From the IMG/VR virus record IMGVR_UViG_3300037295_000333, positions 1-64,000 of that record: a DNA stretch of 64,000 bases; one strand, 5' to 3'. Shown piece by piece: positions 22,278-64,000 of this stretch. The notes under the pieces are model-generated. The model did no database searches. It was given only the letters and a program-made list of their open reading frames with translations, and was not told the DNA's origin. Every line of letters starts with the position of its first letter. Position 1 is the first letter of the stretch. The position numbers were made by a program, and so were the translations under genes. Origin of the DNA: a virus (Duplodnaviria; Caudoviricetes).

Positions 22278-23003
22278 TCAAATTTTGCTTAATATATGAT
22301 ATTGTGGATATTGTTTTAATAATTTTTCCTTTAATAAAATTGGGTTTTCATTATTATAATTTTTAGTTTTTTTAGCTTGTAAATTAGCACTACTGCAAAC
22401 TATCCTTAATACTGAACGATTTTCATGAAATTTATAAAATGAGTTAATTATATTTTTGTCTAATATTTCTTGAATTTCTGATGTTCCTAAGTCTTTTGAT
22501 AATTTTATTTCATCTAAATTAATTTTATTTACTAAGATAAATTCAAGCATAATACTATTAAAGGTTAAAGGGTAAACATGGTCAACATGAGAATATATTT
22601 TTTTAAATTTTAAATTTGTTTGACTGCAAATAAATTTATCTTTATCGCCAACTATTTTAAATGCAGAATCTCTAAAAGAATCAGTTTGATCTTTAACAAC
22701 ATTCCTAAAAATAGATCCCCAATTTTTGTTTTTAGAAAATTTTTGTTGTGGATTAAGGCATTTATAAAAACTGAAATCGGTAGTAGTTCCATCAATTCTT
22801 TGAACCATAAAATTAAATTGATTTACTCTCCATTTAGATTTTTGAACAAAAAAATAATCAAGACCACCGCCTATCTTTTCATTAACATTTGGATGGGATT
22901 TTAAAAGTTCAAATAGTATTTTGTGTTCATAGCTATATTTATCAATTTTTAAATTAGCAAATTTATATAAAATTTTTTGTATTTTTTCTTTAGTCATTTT
23001 CAT
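22278..23003 (-). CDS. putative HNH-like (DUF3223-type) endonuclease
   Basis: DFSFYKC and HVDHVYPLTF...LRIVCSSANL; free-standing gene upstream of thyA. Confidence 0.5.
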   Translation of the reverse strand: MKMTKEKIQKILYKFANLKIDKYSYEHKILFELLKSHPNVNEKIGGGLDYFFVQKSKWRVNQFNFMVQRIDGTTTDFSFYKCLNPQQKFSKNKNWGSIFRNVVKDQTDSFRDSAFKIVGDKDKFICSQTNLKFKKIYSHVDHVYPLTFNSIMLEFILVNKINLDEIKLSKDLGTSEIQEILDKNIINSFYKFHENRSVLRIVCSSANLQAKKTKNYNNENPILLKEKLLKQYPQYHILSKI

Positions 23004-23027
23004 AAGTTATTTTTTAAGTTTATTTTT

Positions 23028-23035
23028 CAAAGATA
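23028..23035 (-). promoter_or_regulatory. Bacteroidota sigma70 -7 element
   Basis: TATCTTTG, just downstream of a terminator. Confidence 0.65.
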
Positions 23036-23065
23036 GTTATAATAATTTAATATGCAAATAAAAAA

Positions 23066-23095
23066 ACAAAAAAGCCTTTAAAAAAATAAGGGCTT
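23066..23095 (-). terminator. intrinsic terminator
   Basis: AAGCCCTTA/TAAAGGCTT imperfect stem plus T tract. Confidence 0.65.
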
Positions 23096-23099
23096 AAAA

Positions 23100-23438
23100 T
23101 TAAATTTTCATTTCTTTTAATAAAAGATAAATGATATTTATTTCATTGGAAGAAAATTTCTTGTAATCAATGTTTCTAATAAACCTTAACTTTATTTCAA
23201 TTTTTAGTTTATCTGAATTTGATTCATCTGACTTTATGTAAGATTCACCAAAATGTTTACCTCCCCCAATACCTTTATTGTCTTGTCTTATGCAAGATAA
23301 ATCGGGTAAATATTTTCTATTAAAAACTTTATTTTCGCTATAAGCAAAATCATCAACTACTTTGTCAATAACAATTTTTTCCTCTGCCGTTCCAAATCTT
23401 AATTTATAAACAACGTCATTAATTTCTAAATTTTTCAT
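23100..23438 (-). CDS. hypothetical protein
   Basis: ORF track. Confidence 0.6.
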   Translation of the reverse strand: MKNLEINDVVYKLRFGTAEEKIVIDKVVDDFAYSENKVFNRKYLPDLSCIRQDNKGIGGGKHFGESYIKSDESNSDKLKIEIKLRFIRNIDYKKFSSNEINIIYLLLKEMKI

Positions 23439-23444
23439 ATATTT

Positions 23445-26400
23445 TTATTTTAATACTTTTAGAATACTTTTATTTGTAAGGGTTAATTGATTTCCCTTTG
23501 TCCACTTATCTTCATACTTTAAGTTTGCCGAAAAGATGATTATAGACTTCTCACAGCCCGTTAATTCTTTTTCGTACAACATATACTCATCAGACCAAAC
23601 TATCAGTTTAAATAGCTTATAATTGTGTTCTATGGTTAACCTTGCAAACTTTCCTTTCTTGCTTTTTGATACCTTACACTCTACAATGTAACCTCCAAAT
23701 AATCTAAATATACCAAAACCTTGTTTTGTGTTTAGTTCAATTTGAGTAAAAAATTTAGTATCAATTCCCATTGTACTGGCTATTTCACTATAATTTACAT
23801 CAGCTAATCCAGTTAACTCTTTTTGCTTTAACAGCCACCACCACTTTTGTGTAATTGCACCAACGGTATAGCAATCCTTTTCTTTGTTTGCAATTTTTAC
23901 TCCATACCTTTCTCTAAAGTCTTTGATTAAATTACCTCTTTCTGACTCATTTTTAATATGATATAAGCGGTCAAATGCTCCAGAAGATATAAGTGCTTCA
24001 TAAGTTTGTTTTTTTACCTTAGAGCCTGTAAAACTATGTCTGTCATGAAAGTCATCAAAATCTGTGTAGTCTCCATTCTTATCCCTTTCAGCAATTACCT
24101 GTAAAGCGGTATCTTCACCAATTCCTTTTATAGAACCAATTCCCCAAAAGATATTTTGACTCTTCATATCTGAAATCATTTCTATTCCTGAGCCATTTAT
24201 GTCAGATGGAAGTATCTTTACTTTTTTTGCAGAAAATATTTCAGCTAAATATTTTAAAGTATCTTTTTCATTCGCATAGTCCAATGCAACTGTCCAATAC
24301 TCTAATGGAAAATTAACCTTTAAATACATTCCCACATAAGCCGTGAGGGCATAAGCTGCAGAATGCGATAAATTAAAAGAATATTTGGCAAACTCGAGCA
24401 TAACAGACCAAATTGTGTTAAATTCTTGAGAAGAACACCCTTTTTTAACAAAGCCCTCTTTTACTATATCTTTCCATCCCTCTAAAACAGATGCCTTTTT
24501 TTTACCCATTGCACGTCTAACGTCATCAGCTTCTCTCATACTTAGTCCTCCAACTTGTTGGCAAACTTGCATGATCTGTTCTTGATAGCAATTGTGGACA
24601 ATTAAACCTCCAGAATGAAAACTATGTTCGTCTTTAACTGTAATGTCATACGTATCAATAATTTCATTTTCTGTTATTCTAAGTATTCTTCCCCAAACCT
24701 TATGGTTAACATCTTCAAATTCAGTAAACTTTGATATGGTGTCTCTTGAAACATAAGATGCATTACAATTTTTATTATAATATCTTGCCCTCATAGATTT
24801 CCATTTAGGTTTTGAACTCCAAATTAATCCATTAGTAGGGTAGTATATTTTAGCACCTTTAAAGTCTTCTTTGATTATTCTAAACTTTAACTTATCGTTT
24901 TTTCCAATTGATACTGTAAAAACATTTCCTTCTTCTTTGTAGGTACAAGGTATCCTGTAAGACTGTAACGCTAAAAATAAATCATAAGAAAGTTCTTTGT
25001 TTGCAAGTCTTATTATTCCATTTTGAAAACATCCATCACCTTCAAATAACCCAGAAAGCATATGTATTGAATAATTTTTTGGAAGTCTTTTTGTGTATAC
25101 ATTTTGCTTGTTAGTTATTCCATATTCCAATAACTTTTTTTTCATTAGATTAACTTTAAAATCTTTAGAAAAATAAGCATTTTTGTTTTCTGCAAATGAA
25201 ACTTGAATTCTATGACAACCTCCAAGCCTTTCTTTGTTTTTACGAAAAGTTACCTTTGGAACTGAAGTTGGAAATACTTTTTTAACTACTTTTAAAACTT
25301 CATTGGTTCTATCTTCGCTGCCTACGTATATTGTAGGCGTACACTTTCCGCCTCCCTCAGCTAAATAGTAACCTATTAGCCAATGTTCTAAAGCAGTATC
25401 TTTATCAATATCATCAAATTTTTCCTCACCTATCCAGTTCCCCTTTATTAAGTCTGATGAAGTGTTTAAATCTTTTGCCTCTTTCCATCCAAACTGAGTC
25501 ATAACTTTATGATCTGGGGTCAATATTAATTCTTCCCCAAAAGTAGTTCTTATTCTTATGGTTTCTTTTTTTCCAGAATAAAAACTATCAGTTACTGTAT
25601 CCCAATTATTTGACTTATTTCTTACTTTATCATTTATTTTTACATCTTTTAATTTAACTATACCTCTTTTTGTAATTATATTTGATTCTCCAGAAAGACA
25701 CAGAAGTCCATAGGTATTTTTTGTTATTTCCTCAGTCCCCCAAAGATATTCCACTTTTCTCCCCTCATTTTTACATTTTACGTAAATTTCATGATAGTGG
25801 TTCTCCATTGGTCCAGGTCTGTAAAGTGCATTGGCTGCAGTTAAATCATTAATATTTTTTGGCTTTAATGCTTTTGAATATTCAGTTAATCCTTCTGACC
25901 CCATTTGAAAAATATCACCGTTCCAACCATTTCCAAAATACCTGTAGACTTCAGGGTCATCAGGTAAATTATATATATCTGGCACTTCTTTGCCATTATT
26001 TTTTATGATTTCTAATATGTCGCCAAACTTGTCTAATTGCTTAATTCCTAAAATATCTTCTTTTAAAAAACCAGCATCTTCCATTTGTCCACCATCCCAC
26101 TCTGAAACAATTAATCCGTTTTGACTTCTCATTGGAGACCATTGTGAAGCTGTCATAACTTCAGGGAAAATAATCATTGCACACGGGTGAATTGATTTGG
26201 TTTTTGGCTGATTTAGTATTGTAGGCAATAATTTAAAGATGTCAGACTGTTGTTTTATGTATTGCTTTAGTCTAGGCTCTGTAGTTGAACGCTTGAATAA
26301 ATCTAACATTGTAGAATCTTTTTCGTCTATAATGGCAGTCATTAAGTTTGCATTTGAAAAGTCATTCTCAAATTGCCTGTCCAAATCCTTTATTGCTCCT

Positions 26401-26513
26401 TTCAATTTTAAAGTTACCGTTGAGCCTACTGAGCATATCTGATTTTCTCCAAATCTTTTTTCCATATATGACTTTATATAAGCCCTATCTTTCCCTGCAA
26501 AATCGGAGTCAAT
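23445..26513 (-). CDS. dnaE: DNA polymerase III alpha, C-terminal part (polymerase core, HhH, OB), containing an intein
   Basis: The frame is open upstream of the track ATG (26465) as ATT-DSDFAGKDRAYIKSYMEKRFG. Motifs: SIHPCA, KEDILG, ALYRPGP, YQEQIM, RRAMGKK, KYSFNLSH and IKGIG. Confidence 0.93.
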   Translation of the reverse strand: MDSDFAGKDRAYIKSYMEKRFGENQICSVGSTVTLKLKGAIKDLDRQFENDFSNANLMTAIIDEKDSTMLDLFKRSTTEPRLKQYIKQQSDIFKLLPTILNQPKTKSIHPCAMIIFPEVMTASQWSPMRSQNGLIVSEWDGGQMEDAGFLKEDILGIKQLDKFGDILEIIKNNGKEVPDIYNLPDDPEVYRYFGNGWNGDIFQMGSEGLTEYSKALKPKNINDLTAANALYRPGPMENHYHEIYVKCKNEGRKVEYLWGTEEITKNTYGLLCLSGESNIITKRGIVKLKDVKINDKVRNKSNNWDTVTDSFYSGKKETIRIRTTFGEELILTPDHKVMTQFGWKEAKDLNTSSDLIKGNWIGEEKFDDIDKDTALEHWLIGYYLAEGGGKCTPTIYVGSEDRTNEVLKVVKKVFPTSVPKVTFRKNKERLGGCHRIQVSFAENKNAYFSKDFKVNLMKKKLLEYGITNKQNVYTKRLPKNYSIHMLSGLFEGDGCFQNGIIRLANKELSYDLFLALQSYRIPCTYKEEGNVFTVSIGKNDKLKFRIIKEDFKGAKIYYPTNGLIWSSKPKWKSMRARYYNKNCNASYVSRDTISKFTEFEDVNHKVWGRILRITENEIIDTYDITVKDEHSFHSGGLIVHNCYQEQIMQVCQQVGGLSMREADDVRRAMGKKKASVLEGWKDIVKEGFVKKGCSSQEFNTIWSVMLEFAKYSFNLSHSAAYALTAYVGMYLKVNFPLEYWTVALDYANEKDTLKYLAEIFSAKKVKILPSDINGSGIEMISDMKSQNIFWGIGSIKGIGEDTALQVIAERDKNGDYTDFDDFHDRHSFTGSKVKKQTYEALISSGAFDRLYHIKNESERGNLIKDFRERYGVKIANKEKDCYTVGAITQKWWWLLKQKELTGLADVNYSEIASTMGIDTKFFTQIELNTKQGFGIFRLFGGYIVECKVSKSKKGKFARLTIEHNYKLFKLIVWSDEYMLYEKELTGCEKSIIIFSANLKYEDKWTKGNQLTLTNKSILKVLK
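24591..25700 (-). mobile_element. contiguous intein with LAGLIDADG endonuclease (370 aa) in dnaE
   Basis: GLL|CLSGES ... TPDH ... IVHN|CYQEQ; LAGLIDADG helices IGYYLAEGG and SGLFEGDG. Confidence 0.92.
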
Positions 26514-26581
26514 TAAATGTCGGGAAGAGTGCCTTCATAAAGCTTCTTCCCGACTACTTGTTTTATAGTTTTTACAATCAT
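26513..26581 (-). CDS. dnaE: 22-aa DnaE segment ending in LPDI
   Basis: ATG at 26581 after an A-rich leader: MIVKTIKQVVGKKLYEGTLPDI*. Supplies the first half of the PDIDxDF motif. Not in the ORF track. Confidence 0.75.
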   Translation of the reverse strand: MIVKTIKQVVGKKLYEGTLPDI

Positions 26582-26588
26582 TTTATTT

Positions 26589-26957
26589 TTAATTATAGTT
26601 TATAATTTTGTCGCCCTCAAGCAAGTCTTCGACAAATATAATACTTTCTTTTTGATTTCTAACTATTTTTATTAAACTTCCTTCTGTTAAAATTATATTT
26701 TCTAAATCTGTTTTTATTTCAAATGCAGGACAATCTCTCAGTTCCCCCATTCTTCCTACATTTAGGAATCTTTCAAAGAGTAGGTCAAATTCAATGGGAT
26801 CAATTTGTATTATTCCAAGTAAGTAGGAAACAAGGCTTCCTCCAGCTGAGTTGTGAACTATTGCACCATTTACACTATAGCTATGATCTTGTGTTTGTAC
26901 ACCAATGTCATAAACTTTTCCTGTATGTTGTAAGTATTTTTTAGACTTTAGTTTCAT
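26589..26957 (-). CDS. dnaE: split-intein C-half (36 aa) + DnaE middle segment
   Basis: [20 protein letters not shown]...AIVHN|[13 protein letters not shown]...[11 protein letters not shown], then a ~50-aa extension. Confidence 0.9.
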
Positions 26958-29358
26958 TGTAAAATTTTATTTTATAGTTATAGTTATGTACATATCTTCT
27001 TTTTGAAATATATTTGCAAGTTAAGTCTTTTTCCTGAATTATATTATAATTTTCTTCACATAATTCAATTTTAGCATAATGTGACTTTTTATTTACTTGA
27101 ATTAATCTTTCACTTAATAAGTTATCCATATTCCTCTTTACTTCTATAACCTTGCCGTTAACAATAAAGTCTGGAAAATAACTTCTATATTCTTCATTGT
27201 CTTTAATTTTGTATTTTATTGGAAGTCTATCATAATTTTTAAAATTAATTATATTTAAATTTTTATCACAGTCTATTATGTAAGCCAATTCTAATAATCC
27301 ATTAAATATAATTTTTCCAAATCTAACAGTATGAACTTCTCCGCTATTTTTAAGTGCATTTGTAACATTTTTTATATATTTTGGATTACTTATATAAAGG
27401 TTTCTCATTATAGCTGAAGCTTTATCTTTATTTTCTTTTACATTCCAATATTTTTGCGCATTTATTTTATTATTTAATTTTTGATTTGGCTTGTTTTGTG
27501 CTATTATCTGAGCCTTAGAGTTATTACTTTTTGCTAATTTAGAATTTAAAGCCTCACTTAATGCACATTTACTGCAATTGTTTAATTTGTGAACATTTAT
27601 TTTTAATCCTGATATAGATTTGCTATATTTTTTTTCACATTTTAAACAAAAATCAGTAAAACTTCTTTTACTTGAAAAACCATTTTTTAAAAATAATAAA
27701 GCATCATTAAAGTTCATTTTACCTTCATAAACTTTTAGTAAAACAGATACACTACATCCTATTTTTTTAACTGCATCTAAAAATTTACCTTGCCTTTTAT
27801 TTTCTTGTACTTCATCAAGTTCAGTAAGTTTATCGGCTTCCACCCAGCCCCTATTTTTTGTAAAAAACTTGTGATCTTTTGTGCATCTTATTACATTTTC
27901 TCCAAAATTAAGTTCCACTATTTCTTCATTTATATCGTAAATAAAAGTATTTATTACTTCTGACTTTCCAAAAAAGTGATTAAAGGTATTGTCTCCAACT
28001 TTAACATCTTCAATACTTTTAAATGTTCCGTTTGACATTTTTACCTTACTGCCTGCAACAAAACAACCTCTGCCTATTCCAGTCAACATTCCCTTTTCTT
28101 TTGCCTCAGCTATAATATCTCTTTGTACTAAAAAGTAGTCTATTACGTCACCTTTTTTCAAAACTGATATTTCTTCTTTTAGTCTTTCTACATATTTATT
28201 TTTATCTACTATTTTTTTTTGTGCAAATCCTAACTTTATGTAATGCATAAACAAATCTTCATTTGCCTTAAAGTTGTCTTTTTCCCACTCATTCATCTTA
28301 TATTTTGGAAGCCTTCTGTTAACCGTATCATACATAAAATTACATTGTGATACTAATTCATCTAAATTTTTATTTGATTCCTTATACAGCCTAATCCAGC
28401 TTGTATTGCCTTGTTCAAACAATCCTATTAATTCAGATGCATATATATCATTGTTCTTAAAATATTGATTTTTTGTTTTGTCGCTAAACTTTTTTCCAAT
28501 TCCCCAAAGAATTTCTCTTGCTTCCCAATCAGATTTTTCCAAACAATAAGCGTCAAAAATTGCTATTGGCTTTAAATCAGATTTTAAATACAATTCTAAA
28601 TTATCTATATATTTTTTATCTGTTTCTGCAATATCGAATTCTACCGTATCTACCATATAAAAATCAGCTTGTTTAAACCTGCTTTCAAACGATGTGGTTT
28701 TGGGATCTGTAATTACAAAAATTCCTTCTAAATTATCTTTTAGAAAATCTTCTTTTACTGCAGTGTCTCCATTCACGTTTATTATCTCACTAAATTTTAA
28801 TAAATTAAGCCAACCTTGAAAGTTTTTTGTATATAGTTTTACTTCATAACTTTCTTTTTCATTCACCACACTCAAGGTCATTCCAATTATTGACTTAATG
28901 TTAGAATCTTTACAATCATTTTGAAACCCCATTACACCTGACAAAGAGTTTTTTTCACAAATTCCCAGTGTGTTTACGCCTAAAAATTTAGCTTTTTTTA
29001 TCCAATCCTTATATGAGCCAATTCCATTTAACAATTCATTTCCTGAGTGAATTCCTAAAAATGATTTTGTAGGTAATTTTTGTTTTGCTTTACCTGTATT
29101 TTTTAATTCTGTCATTGATACATCTTCACCTACTTTTTGTATATACCAAATTCCTCCAAACTCATATACAATTCCATTTGCGTATTGGTCTACTTTAGAA
29201 TAAATATCTTTGTGTATTTGAAATTTCTCATCAAATATAGTTATATTTTTATCTACAATCATAAACACTTCATCTTTTAGTATTAGATGACCCTCTTCTA
29301 TTGTGTAGTCTAATAGGTGTCTATCACAATGTTTTTTTATACTTTTTAATTGATCCAT
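26941..29358 (-). CDS. dnaE: DnaE N-terminal part (PHP domain) + split-intein N-half + nuclease-like domain
   Basis: PHP-like region, YFLVQRDI...GIGRG|CFVAGS...TKDH (intein from 28065), then [15 protein letters not shown]. Start revised to MDQLK (29358). Confidence 0.9.
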
Positions 29359-29373
29359 AATGTTAATTTTTAT

Positions 29374-29381
29374 CAAAGATA
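29374..29381 (-). promoter_or_regulatory. dnaE promoter -7 element
   Basis: TATCTTTG, downstream of a terminator and upstream of MDQLK. Confidence 0.7.
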
Positions 29382-29401
29382 GTTTATTTTAATTATAAAC
29401 C

Positions 29402-29430
29402 AAAAAAAACCCTTAAAATTAATTAAGGGT
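29402..29430 (-). terminator. intrinsic terminator
   Basis: ACCCTTAA/TTAAGGGT stem plus T tract. Confidence 0.75.
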
Positions 29431-29437
29431 AAAGCTT

Positions 29438-30073
29438 TTATTTTTTATCAGATGATCCGAATCCTTTTTCTGCTCTTTCACTTTTAGTAATATCATTTGA
29501 AAAAGACATTTCAAAATCATGCATCTTGTAAGGTATTAATTGAGAAACCGCTTTTCCTTTTCCTATAAATACTTCTTCATCCGATAAGTTAAAAAGTTTT
29601 AACTTTATCTCTCCTCTATATCCATTGTCAATTATTCCACCAAATGAAATTACATCTTGATTGAATCCAAGTCCTGAACGGCTTTCAAACTTTATAAAAT
29701 AGCCTTCACTTATATCTGCTACTTGTAAACCTATTGGAACCACCGCTGAACTAAATGGATTTATTGCAATATCTTCTAAGCAAAATACATCATACCCTGC
29801 ATCTCCTGTTTGTGGGTTGTTGTGATTTTTTTCTGGAAGCCTTGCATTTTTATCTAATTTTATAAACTTTACTTTAAATGTTTTCTTTATTTCTTCTATT
29901 TTAAATTCTTTTTCCTCGTCCCATTCGTACCAATAAATATGTTTTTCTTCTGTTGAACCCCAATTAAAAGCTTGACCTAAAAAATCTGTTGTTTTGTCCC
30001 AATATTGATCTGCATTTTTTTGATGCTCTAATGCTTTTTCTTTTACTTCTTGTGGTAGTTGTGATATTTTCAT
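29438..30073 (-). CDS. dut: second dUTPase with N-terminal MKISxLPQEVKE module
   Basis: GDAGYD, RSG, GIIDNGYRGE, SQ and RAEKGFGSS motifs. Confidence 0.9.
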   Translation of the reverse strand: MKISQLPQEVKEKALEHQKNADQYWDKTTDFLGQAFNWGSTEEKHIYWYEWDEEKEFKIEEIKKTFKVKFIKLDKNARLPEKNHNNPQTGDAGYDVFCLEDIAINPFSSAVVPIGLQVADISEGYFIKFESRSGLGFNQDVISFGGIIDNGYRGEIKLKLFNLSDEEVFIGKGKAVSQLIPYKMHDFEMSFSNDITKSERAEKGFGSSDKK

Positions 30074-40434: not shown

Positions 40435-43400
40435 TTATATTTTAGTTTTATTTTCTTTAAAAGCAACTTGTGTTTTAAAATCATTATATCTACTTTCTGA
40501 AAAAACAATTCCTTGAGACATTCCTCCCCTTGCATTATTTGCGGCATTTGCATTTGCATTTGAACCAATTGAAGGGTCAATTCCTAATCTTGCAGCATTG
40601 TTTGCAGCTATACTTGAAACTCCAGCTGTGGCAACTGATGTTGCTGCAGAAGAAATAGATCCACCTCCTGCTCCACCTCCTCCACTTTTTCTTGAAGGAA
40701 ACCTAACTTTTTTAATATCAGCCAAACCTTTTATAATTGGTATTATAGTTGTTGCGGTTTCTGCTGCTTTAAATGCAACTGATAATGGAAATGGATATGG
40801 AGACTTAGCTGACCATATATTACTTATTGCTGTAGGTGCATTCATTATAGCCTGAGCTATTGCAACTTCTCTCTGAATACCAAAAAGCTCTGCAGCTTTA
40901 TCCATTTGCCTATTAGCCTCCTTTGTCCTTATATCTCCAATAGACTTTTCTGAAACCGCTACAATCTCACCCCTTGCAGTAGCATATTTATTTATTATAT
41001 CATTTTTTTGAGATTCCGTAAGCTCAGTATTTTCAAGTTCTTTTATCTTTTTTGCATCTAAGAAGGTAAAATCTCTAGTTTGTTTATCAATAAGTTGTTG
41101 CAATTCTAAAGCAAATGTGTTTTCTCCTTTTAATCTTTTTGCTTCAAGTTCTTTTTGGTCGGAATCTAATTGTGCTTGCTCTGCTAAATCGTGGTACTTT
41201 ATGTCAATTAATGCTTTTTCACTTTCGGTCAAATCTTTTTTAAAAACCTCTGCTTGCCTCTGTCTTTCTAAAAAATCTAATTGTAAGGCTAAAACATTTT
41301 CACCATTAGCTTGCCTGTCTTGCAAGTCCTTTTCCTCTAAAGCAATTTTTGAATCAGACTCTCTTTGCAATCTATTAGCCTTAACTTCATCTTCTAAAAC
41401 TTGATACCTTCCCCTTATTTCTGCCTTACCTATTTCAGTAAGTTCATCATTTTGAAGTTCATTATTTTTTCTTCTTTCAAGAAGGTCAATTTGTAATTTA
41501 TCGGTATTTTCACCCAAAGATTTTCTTCTTTGAATGTCCATTTCATCAATTTTAGACTGATTGTCAAACTCTAATTTTGCAGCTTTTATTTTTTCGTCTT
41601 GAGCCCTTTTTCTTTCAGCTTCAGCTTTTTTTTGTGCAGCATCTCTTTTTGCCATAGCTTTTTCGTTTGCAGCTATTTCTTTTTCATCTAATCCAGAATC
41701 TCCGCCTACAACTCCACCACTTTTTGGCTGTAATGATTTTAATGCTGCATTTGCAGCTTGAATTCTTCCACGCCTTACTCCTAAATCTTTGTTAATTTTA
41801 TCAATGTCCTCTTTTGCTTGAGCTCTATCTTGTCTATTAGACCTTTTTAAATTACTTAACTTTAATTTATCTAACTCTTCAAATATTTTTGTTGATTCTT
41901 TTAATCTTTTGTTAAGTGTATTGGTTTCTTCAATAGCTATTTTTTTATTTTCTTCAGCTATTGCCTTTGTTCTTTTTGGATCTAAACCTAAATAAATTTG
42001 AGTATCAGCTTTTAATGATTCTCCTGCGGCAATATTTCTAAGGTCAGAAAAAGTGGCGTTAAATTTAGTTAAAGTGTTAAGTGCTTCGGTAATTATTTGA
42101 ACTGTTCCTGTAAAGAATTTGCTCAATGCACCATCTCCATTATTTAAAGATAAAATTAATCCATCAAAAGCTGAACTCATCAAAGTAGTTTGACCTGACA
42201 AACTATTTAATTGTTCATCTGCCATTTTTTGTGCAGCTCCTCCAGCTTCATTTAATGCAATTCCAAGAGCTTCAATTTTAGGTATATTTTTCCCCAAAAC
42301 AAGAAGTGAAGTAGATGCTGTTCTACCAACTTCATCCATAGAGTCAGTTACAGAAATTCCATTTTTTGCAATTTCCCTTAAGCCTTCATTAAAAGGTTTT
42401 CCAGTTTTTGTAATTTCTGAAAAAATTCGTCTTAATGAAGTACCTGCCATTGAACCTTTTATTCCATTGTCAGCTAAAACTCCAAGAAGTGCAGTAGTTT
42501 GTTCAATTGGAACGTTTAAAGCATTTGCAACTGGTGCAACAAATTTCATTGATTCTTTAAAAGTTGTAATGTCTAAAGCCGATGAAGTAAATGATTTAGC
42601 CATTACGTCAACAACCCTACCCATTTGAGATGCATCAAGATTAAATGCACGTAATGTTTGACCTGCAATTAAAGCTGCATTTGCCAAATCTGTGTCAACT
42701 GCTGAAGCCAAAGTACTTATTGCCTTTGTAGATGCTAAAATTTCAGGTTCAGAAAAACCTAATTTACCAAGCTCTTTTTGCAAACCTACAATTTCAGAGG
42801 CAGTAAATCTTGTTGTTGCTCCTAGCTCTTTTGCATTGTCCGTTAGTCCCTTTATACCTTCTCTATTTGTTCCTAAAGTAGCAGCTAAATCAGCACTTAC
42901 TTTGTCAAAATCTTTTATTGTATTATATGCACCTTTTAATACATTTGCAAACAAACTTATTCCTGCAACTAATCCAAAAGCACCAACTAAGTTTTTTACA
43001 CCTGATGTAAGAGAGCCAATTGTACCACTTATTCCCTTTGAACTTTTACTAAAATCGCCAACCGCTCTATCTGCTTTTCTTACTTTTGTATCAAGTGTAT
43101 CAAATTCTTTTTGAGCCTTTTTTATTGCATCTGTAGAAGCATTTTCACTAGAAATTAAGTCTAGTAACTTTCTTTTTGATTCACTTCTAGCATTAGTAAG
43201 TTTATTATATGCACTATTTAAAGTAATACTAGCAGAAGTTTCTTTTTTAAGGGAAGAATTTAGTCTATCTTCTACTTTAATGCCTGCCTCACTAACTTTT
43301 AAAGAATCGAGTTTTGCTTTATTTAATTTATCAAATATTGCTTTTAATTCTTTTTCCGTTGCACCTCTTCCTTCGAGAGTTCGCCTTTCATTTTCTAAGG

Positions 43401-52531: not shown

Positions 52532-53185
52532 TCATTTTATTTGATTTACTGTAGATGCGGTTAAAAATCCTAAAAAGAATATAGCAACTTTGGATTCATA
52601 CCATTTTACATCTTCCTTTCTTTCATAATACTTTCCACCTACAACAGTAACATTTTTATTTGAATGAACCTCATCTAGTGTATAGGTCTTTTTGCCTAAA
52701 AACCACTTTCTCTTCATTCCTTCAATTCTATATACCGTATCGACTATTTTAAAATCTTTTAATACAAAATCTTTTTCCGTACTTTTGTAACTAAATGAAT
52801 AATCTTTATTAATTACTTCTCCAGTTACTTTAAATGGAATTTTTATTGTATCTTTGTACTTTATGACAATTGAGTCGTATTTTGTTTCTTGTATACTTTC
52901 ACTAAAAGTATTTACTTTTTCAAACTTATTTCTAAGCAGTTTAAGGCTTGAATTTTTTTCATCTATAAGTTTGTTAAGTTCTTTAACTTTTAGTTCAGCA
53001 CGTGCCATAGATGCTACTTGAGTACCATCTTTTAACTCATACTTTACTAATTCAATTTTAGCATTATTTATTTTTAGATTTGCATTTTTAGCTAAACTAT
53101 TTTGAATATAAATTATTGCACAAAGAGAGAGTAAAACTAATAGTAAAATAAATTTTTTTTTAATCCAATTTTGAACGTCTTTCAT
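52532..53185 (-). CDS. spanin-like membrane/coiled-coil lysis protein
   Basis: N-terminal TM, coiled coil, C-terminal KWYE...TM. Overlaps the endolysin 3' end. Start revised to MKDVQNW. Confidence 0.5.
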   Translation of the reverse strand: MKDVQNWIKKKFILLLVLLSLCAIIYIQNSLAKNANLKINNAKIELVKYELKDGTQVASMARAELKVKELNKLIDEKNSSLKLLRNKFEKVNTFSESIQETKYDSIVIKYKDTIKIPFKVTGEVINKDYSFSYKSTEKDFVLKDFKIVDTVYRIEGMKRKWFLGKKTYTLDEVHSNKNVTVVGGKYYERKEDVKWYESKVAIFFLGFLTASTVNQIK

Positions 53186-53744
53186 AAATTTCCTTTCTAT
53201 CTTTAAAACCATTTGCATCGCCATATCTTTGCGTTTGTCTCCCTATGTTTACAATATCACTTATAGAATCAAGGTCATTTAGGTCAGCAAACTTATTTAA
53301 ATTATTTACCTTCCAATACCACAGTGAACTAATGAGTGCATCGGCTTCTGTTTCTAAAAGTTCAGGATTTTTTAAATAATCAATTTTAGTATCTTTACTT
53401 AATTTTGTAAAATTATTTTTACCTGTAATTCCAATAAATCCACCTGCTCTATACTTCCACCCATCGCCACTTTCTTCATCGCCATTACCCATTCTATTTG
53501 CATAAACATAATTTGCCATTTTTTCAGAATTCCTCAAATAAGAAGAAACAAACAAATTAGTTTTGCCTTTAAATGGTGTATAAAAAATTTCTTTTGCCTG
53601 CTTAATTGTTGTGTAGTATGTATCTTCTCTAACTGGTTTTAAATTACTTTCATGCTCCAATTGTGTCATTAAGTGGTTGTACCTAAGTTTTGTGTTAATG
53701 TAAAAAGACTCCAAAAGACTTTTGTATTTTTCTCTAAATTCCAT
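53160..53744 (-). CDS. GH19-family endolysin
   Basis: QLEHES...YANRMGNGDEESGDGWKYR.GGFIGITGKNN...WYW. Confidence 0.88.
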   Translation of the reverse strand: MEFREKYKSLLESFYINTKLRYNHLMTQLEHESNLKPVREDTYYTTIKQAKEIFYTPFKGKTNLFVSSYLRNSEKMANYVYANRMGNGDEESGDGWKYRAGGFIGITGKNNFTKLSKDTKIDYLKNPELLETEADALISSLWYWKVNNLNKFADLNDLDSISDIVNIGRQTQRYGDANGFKDRKEIYERRSKLD

Positions 53745-55782: not shown

Positions 55783-55821
55783 AAAAAGAAACCCACTCTA
55801 TTTTTAATAAAGTGGGTTTCT
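55783..55821 (-). terminator. intrinsic terminator
   Basis: AGAAACCCAC/GTGGGTTTCT stem plus T tract. Confidence 0.8.
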
Positions 55822-55990
55822 GCTATTGTTTTGTTTTTTAAAAATTTTTACCCTTTTAATTAATTTAATTGTATTTCAGTATTGTTAAAAATCTTGTATC
55901 CAATTTTTTTAAATGCTTTATATTGTTCAATTACCCAATCTTTATATAAACAATACTTTTAAAAACATTTTTAACAAAACTTTAACAAAT

Positions 55991-56458: not shown

Positions 56459-56532
56459 TAAAGAGTCAGGATTCGAACCTGAAAGAATTGGGGTTTTTGT
56501 CCACTCGTTTTGCCTACTTAAACTATCTCTCT
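56459..56532 (-). tRNA. degenerate tRNA-like element
   Basis: D arm GTTT/AAAC with a GG loop, T arm TCAGG-TTCGAAT-CCTGA, 6-bp acceptor. Anticodon stem has two mismatches and the loop lacks U33. Confidence 0.6.
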
Positions 56533-63927: not shown

Positions 63928-64000
63928 TGGAGATGGTTCGGGCTTTGAACCCGAATCTTTTCACTTTTGCAATTGCTTTTCCAATTAAGCTATCCATCTC
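63928..64000 (-). tRNA. tRNA-like element with intact acceptor, D and T arms but no anticodon stem
   Basis: GAGATGG/CCATCTC, GCTT-AATTGGAA-AAGC, TCGGG-TTCAAAG-CCCGA. Only 20 nt lie between the D and T stems. The 5' end is at the window edge. Confidence 0.6.

Follow-up and report, generated by a model that had tools for sequence, protein, structure and literature searches.

A probable five-nucleotide stop-hop inside the catalytic motif of a phage DnaE polymerase, and gaps at the same codon in other phage lineages

The DnaE replicase gene of an uncultured marine or salt-lake phage is interrupted inside its catalytic PDIDxDF motif by five bases, TAATT, and we consider it probable, at roughly two chances in three, that ribosomes cross them by a programmed short translational bypass, a +5 'stop-hop', a reading that draws on sequence comparison. 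The DNA analysed (hereafter the window) comprises positions 1 to 64,000 of IMG/VR record IMGVR_UViG_3300037295_000333, i.e., 64 kb of a 77.5-kb contig estimated to be 96% complete. On the minus strand the site reads CTT CCC GAC ATT TAA TT GAC TCC GAT TTT: a 22-codon open reading frame (ORF) ends on L-P-D-I and UAA, a second ATT (26513-26511) shares the last A of the stop, and GAC TCC GAT TTT comes directly after it. The AUU triplets at 26518-26516 and 26513-26511 form a matched pair, after which the next codon, GAC, restores PDIDSDF. An earlier note on this DNA, made from its letters alone, had drawn attention to this reading, to the short ORF and to the repeated ATT, and all three were recovered. 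The features of the site are as follows.

26513-26581, minus strand: leader ORF of 22 codons plus UAA, with ATG at 26581 and TAA at 26515-26513, ending in LPDI
26519-26554, minus strand: 5' stem-loop, identified by folding and common to a second locus, L039
26516-26518, minus strand: proposed take-off codon AUU (Ile of PDI), read from the sequence, its role putative
26513-26515, minus strand: UAA stop, read from the sequence, in the A site at the proposed take-off
26511-26515, minus strand: five extra bases TAATT, with no counterpart in any gapless relative (alignment of relatives; contigs)
26511-26513, minus strand: proposed landing codon AUU, the first cognate triplet 3' of take-off, read from the sequence, its role putative
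26499-26510, minus strand: resume codons GAC UCC GAU UUU (DSDF), carrying the two palm aspartates by protein alignment
26463-26465, minus strand: ATG chosen by gene callers, 16 codons past DSDF; a protein begun here is without DSDF

The DSDF frame lies 5 nt (equivalent to -1) off the leader frame, i.e., it is the -1/+2 frame relative to the leader; it is open from 26534 and continues to 23445, contributing about 1,000 further DnaE codons. Its IDSDF residues pair one for one with IDTDF of the solved Thermus aquaticus Pol III alpha and also align to the Pfam profile DNA_pol3_alpha, from profile position 104, and its two aspartates are presumably the palm aspartates D401 and D403 of E. coli. The earlier note had warned that a start at Met 26465 drops both of them, which the position of DSDF bears out. 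As gene callers place the start of the polymerase at exactly this Met, genes of this kind would be silently mis-annotated as truncated or split.

On the minus strand DnaE is encoded in pieces: an 811-aa ORF (PHP domain, beginning of the palm, N-terminal half of an intein and a part of ~285 aa that has no Pfam hit), a 122-aa ORF, the 22-codon ORF and the C-half. Two of these pieces flank the site.

26589-26957, minus strand: DnaE middle piece of 122 aa, consisting of a 36-aa C-terminal intein half (..IVHN/SAGGS), extein and a ~50-aa non-polymerase tail (..IINYN-stop) that is kept in relatives
23445-26510, minus strand: rest of the DnaE C-terminal subunit, with palm, fingers, a cis intein at about residues 292-641 and HhH, delimited by domain and strain comparison

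The DnaE relatives include the Cellulophaga phages phiST and phi13:1 and Tenacibaculum phage Larrie (genus Cbastvirus), at 63-70% protein identity. In all relatives examined, both the cultured phages and the metagenomic loci (more than 25 distinct ones, from IMG/VR, JGI, TARA and ENA), DnaE consists of two genes split at the same place, which in the Cbastvirus-like group (L001-L025, L031-L048) falls between ..FERFLNxGRMGx and LPDIDxDF. The first gene ends in a conserved tail of ~50 aa (..EGDxII.Y-stop), and the second opens with M-K-V, continues for ~18 residues and then runs, in a single frame, through G-T/S-L-P-D-I/V-D-x-D-F. The leader of the window keeps the invariant leader residues of these relatives except Lys2, which is Ile, and the sole difference from the gapless relatives at the junction is TAATT, which separates the Ile codon from that of the first catalytic Asp. 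Because the leader of the relatives runs in frame into PD[IV]DxDF, the 22-codon ORF is, on comparative grounds, the true N-terminus of the DnaE C-terminal subunit, an 18-aa extension followed by LPDI. The earlier note had reckoned with the case that close relatives are uninterrupted; instead the gene is naturally split here, and the more than 25 relatives are gapless but made of two genes.

The insert is real and conserved in diverged strains. The stretch, insert included, recurs without a single difference in an independent Logan assembly made from the likely source run (depth 31), and two contigs, each from another sample and study, cross the site with 0 gaps: X2 (358 nt, 26200-26557) with 14 substitutions and X4 (294 nt, 26307-26600) with 10. 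Both represent ~96%-identical strains and were compared by counts of substitutions and gaps. In the polymerase part (25700-26513), 25/25 listed strain differences are synonymous third-position changes, 11 of the synonymous changes being held by the very X2 contig that carries the gap. Synonymous differences at 26466, 26478 and 26484 lie between DSDF and Met 26465 in the DnaE frame and, since all three differences in this stretch are synonymous, it is translated in that frame. No family A or B polymerase was found in the 96%-complete genome, in which DnaE is the sole polymerase found. Judged by this substitution pattern, the gene is under purifying selection and functional, and the claim that the insert is no artefact and is kept in strains under selection thus stands on independent contigs and on the 25/25 synonymous changes. 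An exact-protein look-up matched only the Logan contig of the source run, and a protein search for gene fragments on short strain contigs returned no match; no RNA run was found to carry this DNA. The neighbouring cis intein (24591-25640) in the C-half shows 6/14 synonymous strain differences, i.e., a much weaker constraint than that on the extein.

Directly 5' of the take-off codon lies a hairpin of 15 bp (26554-26519), whose lower stem of 10 perfect pairs (26554-26545 with 26528-26519) is separated by a 1x2 internal loop from an upper stem of 5 pairs (26543-26539 with 26535-26531), capped by a triloop (26538-26536). Its 3' end is the base immediately before AUU (-1), its loop sits 18-20 nt 5' of take-off, and it folds at -19.7 kcal/mol (z = -4.9 against dinucleotide shuffles). 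When the same 13 residues were recoded synonymously 20,000 times with the codon usage of the window genome, the resulting sequences had a mean of -3.6 kcal/mol (standard deviation 1.8) and the best of them reached -12.4 kcal/mol. The stem is written in rare codons, namely GTC (3% of Val codons), GGG (9%), CCC (4%) and GGC (9%), and stretches of 39 nt that fold below -18 occur at two places on the sense strand of the 64 kb, the hairpin itself and an intergenic terminator at 55824-55786. Given that none of the 20,000 recodings matched it and that only one other such fold exists in 64 kb, the hairpin is far beyond chance and purpose-built. The homologous 39-42 nt of gapless relatives within the genus fold at -2.4 to -9 kcal/mol. 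Refolding thus upheld the 10-bp stem that the earlier note had described as ending before the take-off codon; the extension GCTTT/AAGGC that it had suggested was found as the 5-pair upper stem, and its impression that the stem stands out in this genome agrees with the two such hairpins in 64 kb. This 15-bp structure ending at -1 is a 5' stem-loop of the kind that can re-form on exiting mRNA in gene-60-type bypassing.

Two further observations concern folding in the window. The octamer GGGAAAGA at 26488-26495, 23-30 nt 3' of take-off, is complementary to UCUUCCC of the hairpin 3' arm and again uses the rare GGG, and the fold is not significant. The strongest other hairpin, at 55786-55824 on the minus strand, is followed by a U run and probably serves as an intrinsic terminator.

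Gaps at the same codon recur in other lineages. A profile search of IMG/VR provided 80 loci, which were screened by script for gaps and 5' stems. One gap-bearing locus is L039, whose C-half shares only 65% identity with that of the window. L039 is arranged as first DnaE gene, GIY-YIG homing endonuclease gene, a leader ending ..GTLPDI-UAA and then GTC GAT TCA GAT TTT, with a gap of 6 nt that is in frame (TAAGTC). Its lower stem is identical to that of the window (GTCGGGAAGA / TCTTCCCGAC) and is followed by the same ATT TAA, whereas the upper stem is ACUG/CGGU as against GCUUU/AAGGC in the window, pairing being kept by compensating changes. At third codon positions the two agree by 70% in the leader and by 45% downstream. 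The earlier note had suggested asking whether relatives conserve the stop, the matched codon pair and the hairpin. L039 keeps AUU, UAA and the stem with its compensating upper-stem changes; its landing codon is only near-cognate. The gapless relatives do not have the hairpin.

The 15-mer CTTCCCGACATTTAA occurs in 14 stretches of IMG/VR, the sole one in DnaE being the L039 contig, and the full 26-mer of the gap had no match in IMG/VR. A degenerate gap pattern had one match there, L029, antisense in an unrelated ORF, which we discarded as chance. A metagenome scan gave relatives at 66-72% identity, together with two partial matches at 75-80% that stop short of the leader, and all of those covering the site are gapless; megablast against phage records revealed no near relative.

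More distant loci carry gaps of other lengths. In L098/L105 (2555-2605), GAU-UAA is followed by a 39-nt gap with its own stem-loop, a GAC landing codon and then AUU GAU ACA GAU; L062/L087/L093/L103/L107 (2470-2520) follow the L098 design with a 40-nt gap, GAU to GAU, in frame +1; and L064/L071 (2460-2510) have GAG-UAG, a stem-loop gap of ~34 nt and a GAA landing codon, again in frame +1. These 34-40-nt clades (from metagenome 3300045988 and others) show an internal stem-loop and a G-rich stretch before the landing codon, and as such look like gene-60-like cassettes. L044 (2490-2515) reads CUU CCC UGA C AUC GAU, with one extra base that makes a prfB-like +1 shifty stop, and has a hairpin of about -15 kcal/mol.

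What these alleles have in common is the 5' stem-loop: 8/8 gap alleles have one, with energies from -15.2 to -20.4 kcal/mol and an end that falls 0-2 nt short of the take-off codon, while 23 gapless alleles range from -2.4 to -14.2 (mean -7.2 kcal/mol). The separation is complete (U = 0, p = 2e-5, Mann-Whitney, 8 vs 23), although this p is overstated, as the gap alleles share ancestry and amount to ~4-5 independent lineages. Four unrelated stem sequences are used, the 3' arm always falling on the codons that end the leader (..G-T/S-L-P-D). Gaps of many lengths and of all three frame relations, at one position and with matched codons, are what bypassing predicts and what a frameshift or a restart does not. 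We regard it as an even bet that these loci form a natural family of miniature bypass sites at the DnaE motif, whose gaps (1, 5, 6, ~34, 39 and 40 nt, at one codon in four or more lineages) homing endonucleases and inteins have seeded or put to use, and whose one common signal is a strong 5' hairpin at take-off.

The favoured stop-hop would proceed as follows. Ribosomes would start at AUG 26581, the usual start of the C-subunit, and translate 22 codons, until peptidyl-tRNA-Ile sits on AUU 26518-26516 with UAA in the A site. The anticodon would then unpair, its release eased by the weak AUU pairing (all A-U or G-U), the mRNA would slide by 5 nt, and the tRNA-Ile would re-pair on AUU 26513-26511, from where decoding would resume at GAC. 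The product, ...GTLPDIDSDFAGK..., would be the sequence that gapless relatives encode (the ancestral PDIDSDF), with LYEGTLPDIDSDFAGK as its junction peptide. The mRNA leaves the ribosome at about -12 to -15. The translating ribosome would melt the hairpin, such that at take-off the lower-stem 3' arm (-1 to -10) would be inside the ribosome and the apical 5-bp hairpin (-13 to -25) about where the mRNA leaves it; re-zipping of the lower stem could then drive the ribosome forward by drawing mRNA out at the exit, a part that the 5' stem-loop of T4 gene 60 has been suggested to play. Both the hop itself and this role of the hairpin are suggested by the arrangement of the signals. The preference of the earlier note for a bypass over its alternatives is favoured by the comparative data, i.e., a real insert, a hairpin seen only in gap alleles and the lack of a start codon in L039.

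Several points weigh against the stop-hop. In E. coli, UAA with a U after it terminates strongly, the synthetic stop-hops made by Weiss in 1987 reportedly reached an efficiency of only ~1%, and at take-off the nascent chain has no more than 22 residues. Folding downstream of take-off is not significant (26515-26440, z -1.4; 26530-26470, z -1.0), and there is no stem-loop in or after the 5-nt gap. The presumed landing codon of L039, GUC, is near-cognate only for tRNA-Ile (first-position G-U), and the extra C of L044 lies in a CCC run and might be a homopolymer assembly error. The shared ancestry of the gap alleles counts here as well, and, the insert having been checked on assembled contigs, minority insert-free variants could have escaped. 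When the genome was searched for a phage tRNA that might promote the hop, just two tRNA-like genes turned up, both aberrant and both lacking an Ile anticodon. They lie at 56459-56532 and 63930-63999 on the minus strand; their acceptor, D and T arms are good, their anticodon arms aberrant (9-nt loop, mispaired stems), and no normal tRNA was found in the whole 77.5-kb genome. Overlapping ORF pairs at 40435-40580 and 53160-53224, considered as further frame breaks, proved to be ordinary neighbouring genes.

The alternative offered by the earlier note, termination at UAA with release of the leader peptide and restart on the overlapping AUU (UAAUU), would make a separate subunit M-DSDF and DnaE one more non-covalent piece. 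It has some appeal, as the overlap resembles the common UAAUG couplings and DnaE is already built of several polypeptides, but AUU is a very poor start codon, and the wrong-frame UUG (26512-26510) beside it would compete. AUU precedes DxD in most gap alleles, which might speak for a restart were it not there simply as the Ile codon of the motif. Beside the stop, this non-canonical AUU is the only start candidate in the downstream frame of the window, and L039, with the same hairpin, AUU and UAA, has none: no AUG, GUG, UUG or AUU was found there between stop and DSDF, which argues against the alternative. A restart would furthermore sever the leader, which is as conserved as the body, and the invariant L-P-D from their subunit, and it leaves no role for a hairpin that ends at -1. 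We thus hold it to be unlikely.

A conventional -1 or +2 frameshift at AUU-UAA, giving products such as PDI-LI-DSDF or PDI-I-DSDF (and, in L039, amounting to stop readthrough), is more doubtful still. The openness of the -1/+2 frame from 26534 would allow it and an A-site stop is a known stimulator, but the signals for -1 frameshifting are missing (no X XXY YYZ heptamer in 26534-26513), tRNA-Ile cannot re-pair at -1 (CAU) or +2 (UUA), and downstream structure is not significant. L044 does resemble a classical CCC-UGA +1 shifty stop; for the window, however, the products would change the catalytic motif, and the window and L039 would require two mechanisms in spite of their common signals.

Equally hard to credit is that the hairpin followed by AUUUAAUU acts as an intragenic terminator or attenuator, or that the five bases are removed from the RNA by some process. 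The hairpin is as strong as the one clear terminator of the window and the insert raises the U content of the next 8 nt to 5/8, yet a consensus terminator scan made no call at the hairpin, and production of the selected C-half would go unexplained, there being no obvious downstream promoter or start. As for removal from RNA, no Rfam family (intron, ribozyme) was detected in 23000-30000 at permissive thresholds, and we know of no bacterial system that excises 5-6 nt from RNA.

A broken gene, i.e., a sequencing or assembly error (the window being a metagenome-assembled contig, checked by contigs) or a recent inactivation in a defective lineage, is the least probable reading and largely refuted, because the insert recurs in the depth-31 independent assembly and across ~96%-identical strains of two samples, the substitutions since strain divergence are 25/25 synonymous and DnaE is the sole polymerase, and because the hairpin is purpose-built and common to L039.

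The junction coding for PDIDxDF is, from its gene content, a hotspot for selfish elements. GIY-YIG endonuclease genes lie between the DnaE halves in L006, L007, L008 and L039, and other genes occupy the same place in L003 (PAPS-reductase-like) and L018 (DUF7220). L023 (JQIA01019624.1, ~400-450) has a true intein C-terminus, ..APCHN/SDIDSDF, immediately in front of the motif, the position at which the split and the gaps also fall. In the X2 strain, which keeps the 5-nt gap, the two DnaE genes are separated by foreign DNA at 26586-26588 that starts ATG AAT AGA GAA ATT AAA TTC; the first 30 nt of this inserted gene had no match in IMG/VR or the window. A split intein at the junction of the window finds no support, as trans-splicing calls for Cys/Ser as first intein residue and a C-terminal HN with Cys/Ser/Thr after it, and tail and leader lack such splicing residues: the leader ends ..G-T-L-P, with no HN before the extein, and the tail begins with Arg in most relatives, the window and L013 having Cys. 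For lack of such residues the DnaE halves are probably held together non-covalently, and tail and leader probably form a clasp, a remnant of an old split intein or nuclease cassette.

The first DnaE intein, further upstream, is itself split in the window (26941-27804), its N-half being fused to the ~285-aa part and its 36-aa C-half having an ATG of its own, with an overlap of 17 nt. In X2 a contig joins 26950 to 27804 with 30 nt in place of 853 nt, a net loss of 823 nt (1 mod 3) that would unite the frames, and this sister strain seems to have a contiguous mini-intein.

In T4 the gap of gene 60 shields the DNA against the nuclease that its own cassette encodes (Manning & Atkins, 10.1101/2022.08.31.505936). 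Interrupting the conserved DNA for PDIDxDF by 5 nt could likewise shield it from homing endonucleases and inteins, which is probably why the gap persists. We suggest this protective value from the company the gap keeps; if it holds, the window, with a gap and no nuclease gene, would represent a 'hit and run' state.

Efficient natural bypassing has been established by experiment mainly for T4 gene 60 and the yeast mitochondrial 'byp' elements. If the stop-hop is true, the site would be a rare natural short form of the gene 60 bypass and a minimal one, made of 5 nt, a hairpin, a stop and matched codons, placed in the catalytic motif of the phage's only DNA polymerase. Its natural variants, i.e., a 6-nt gap with the same hairpin and longer gaps with stem-loops, make the model in which the exiting mRNA is the driver testable in a very small cassette. 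Should the family reading be true as well, refolding of the exiting mRNA alone could drive efficient short hops, and short stop-hops, so far known solely from synthetic constructs, would be a regular means by which phages protect their most conserved DNA from selfish nucleases without losing the function of essential genes. The site would thus link recoding to the arms race of phage genes with homing endonucleases or inteins.

Our literature search found no bypassing described in a DNA polymerase gene or in Cellulophaga phages. The nearest short natural candidate in the literature examined is the terminase of Streptomyces phage Hau3, where two 10-nt UUA-led inserts are candidates for bypassing and a junction peptide was detected by mass spectrometry in E. 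coli for a UAA variant (PMC10732093). Both systems have short frame-breaking inserts in an essential phage gene, a slow codon at the 5' end of the gap and RNA structure nearby, but Hau3 has 10 nt, the rare sense codon UUA and a proposed regulation by host tRNA supply, whereas the window has 5 nt, a true stop and an association with endonucleases and inteins. The fractured genes of Dassa et al. (2009, PMC2677866) resemble our locus in that DnaE is split at one conserved place with GIY-YIG or other genes in between, and differ from it in that no recoding is involved there and in that the window junction has no splicing residues.

Synthetic +5/+6 stop-hops with matched codons work in E. coli, as cited in a review (Weiss, Dunn, Atkins & Gesteland 1987, in PMC5009743), and the same 2016 review knew of no natural in-frame stop hop (PMC5009743). 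As in those constructs, the tRNA of the window would leave a codon beside a stop and re-pair on a matched one, by +5 here and by what would be +6 in L039. Unlike them (artificial, of low efficiency and without stimulators), the site in the window is natural and conserved, lies in an essential gene and has a dedicated hairpin.

The bypass of T4 gene 60, as Huang in 1988 and Bonocora in 2011 are said to have described, lies within the MobA homing-endonuclease element. In both systems a replication gene essential to the phage is divided in two, some alleles have a homing endonuclease gene at the division, the two parts bear short C- and N-terminal extensions, and the gap falls a few dozen codons into the downstream half, in highly conserved coding DNA. 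They also share matched take-off and landing codons, a stop right after take-off and a 5' stem-loop, for which mRNA pairing on leaving the ribosome has been proposed as forward driver in gene 60 (Wills, Parsawar & Atkins, 10.1101/2024.12.09.627546). The differences are several: the gap of the window is 5 nt vs 50, the take-off tRNA is Ile vs Gly, the hairpin loop lies 18-20 nt 5' of take-off vs 26 nt in T4, and the window has neither an A-site take-off stem-loop nor an internal Shine-Dalgarno, although the gaps of L098, L062 and L064 do hold a stem-loop. The leader carries GKKLYEG at a distance of 7-10 residues from the take-off residue, where relatives show KKLV(D/N)G and no Tyr, and this spacing is unlike that of KKYK in T4. 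The nuclease of the relatives is GIY-YIG/NUMOD3 rather than HNH as in MobA, it is absent from the window, and the host gene is DnaE and not the large subunit of topoisomerase II; there is no sequence homology to the MobA cassette, which makes the window site an analogue and not a member. The likeness to gene 60 that the earlier note had proposed thus survives for the matched codons, the stop and the 5' stem-loop, but not for the gap, which has no stem-loop of its own, and the site is best described as a synthetic-type stop-hop joined to a gene-60-like 5' stem-loop. That stem-loop, weakly conserved among gene 60 homologues, is here the one constant signal.

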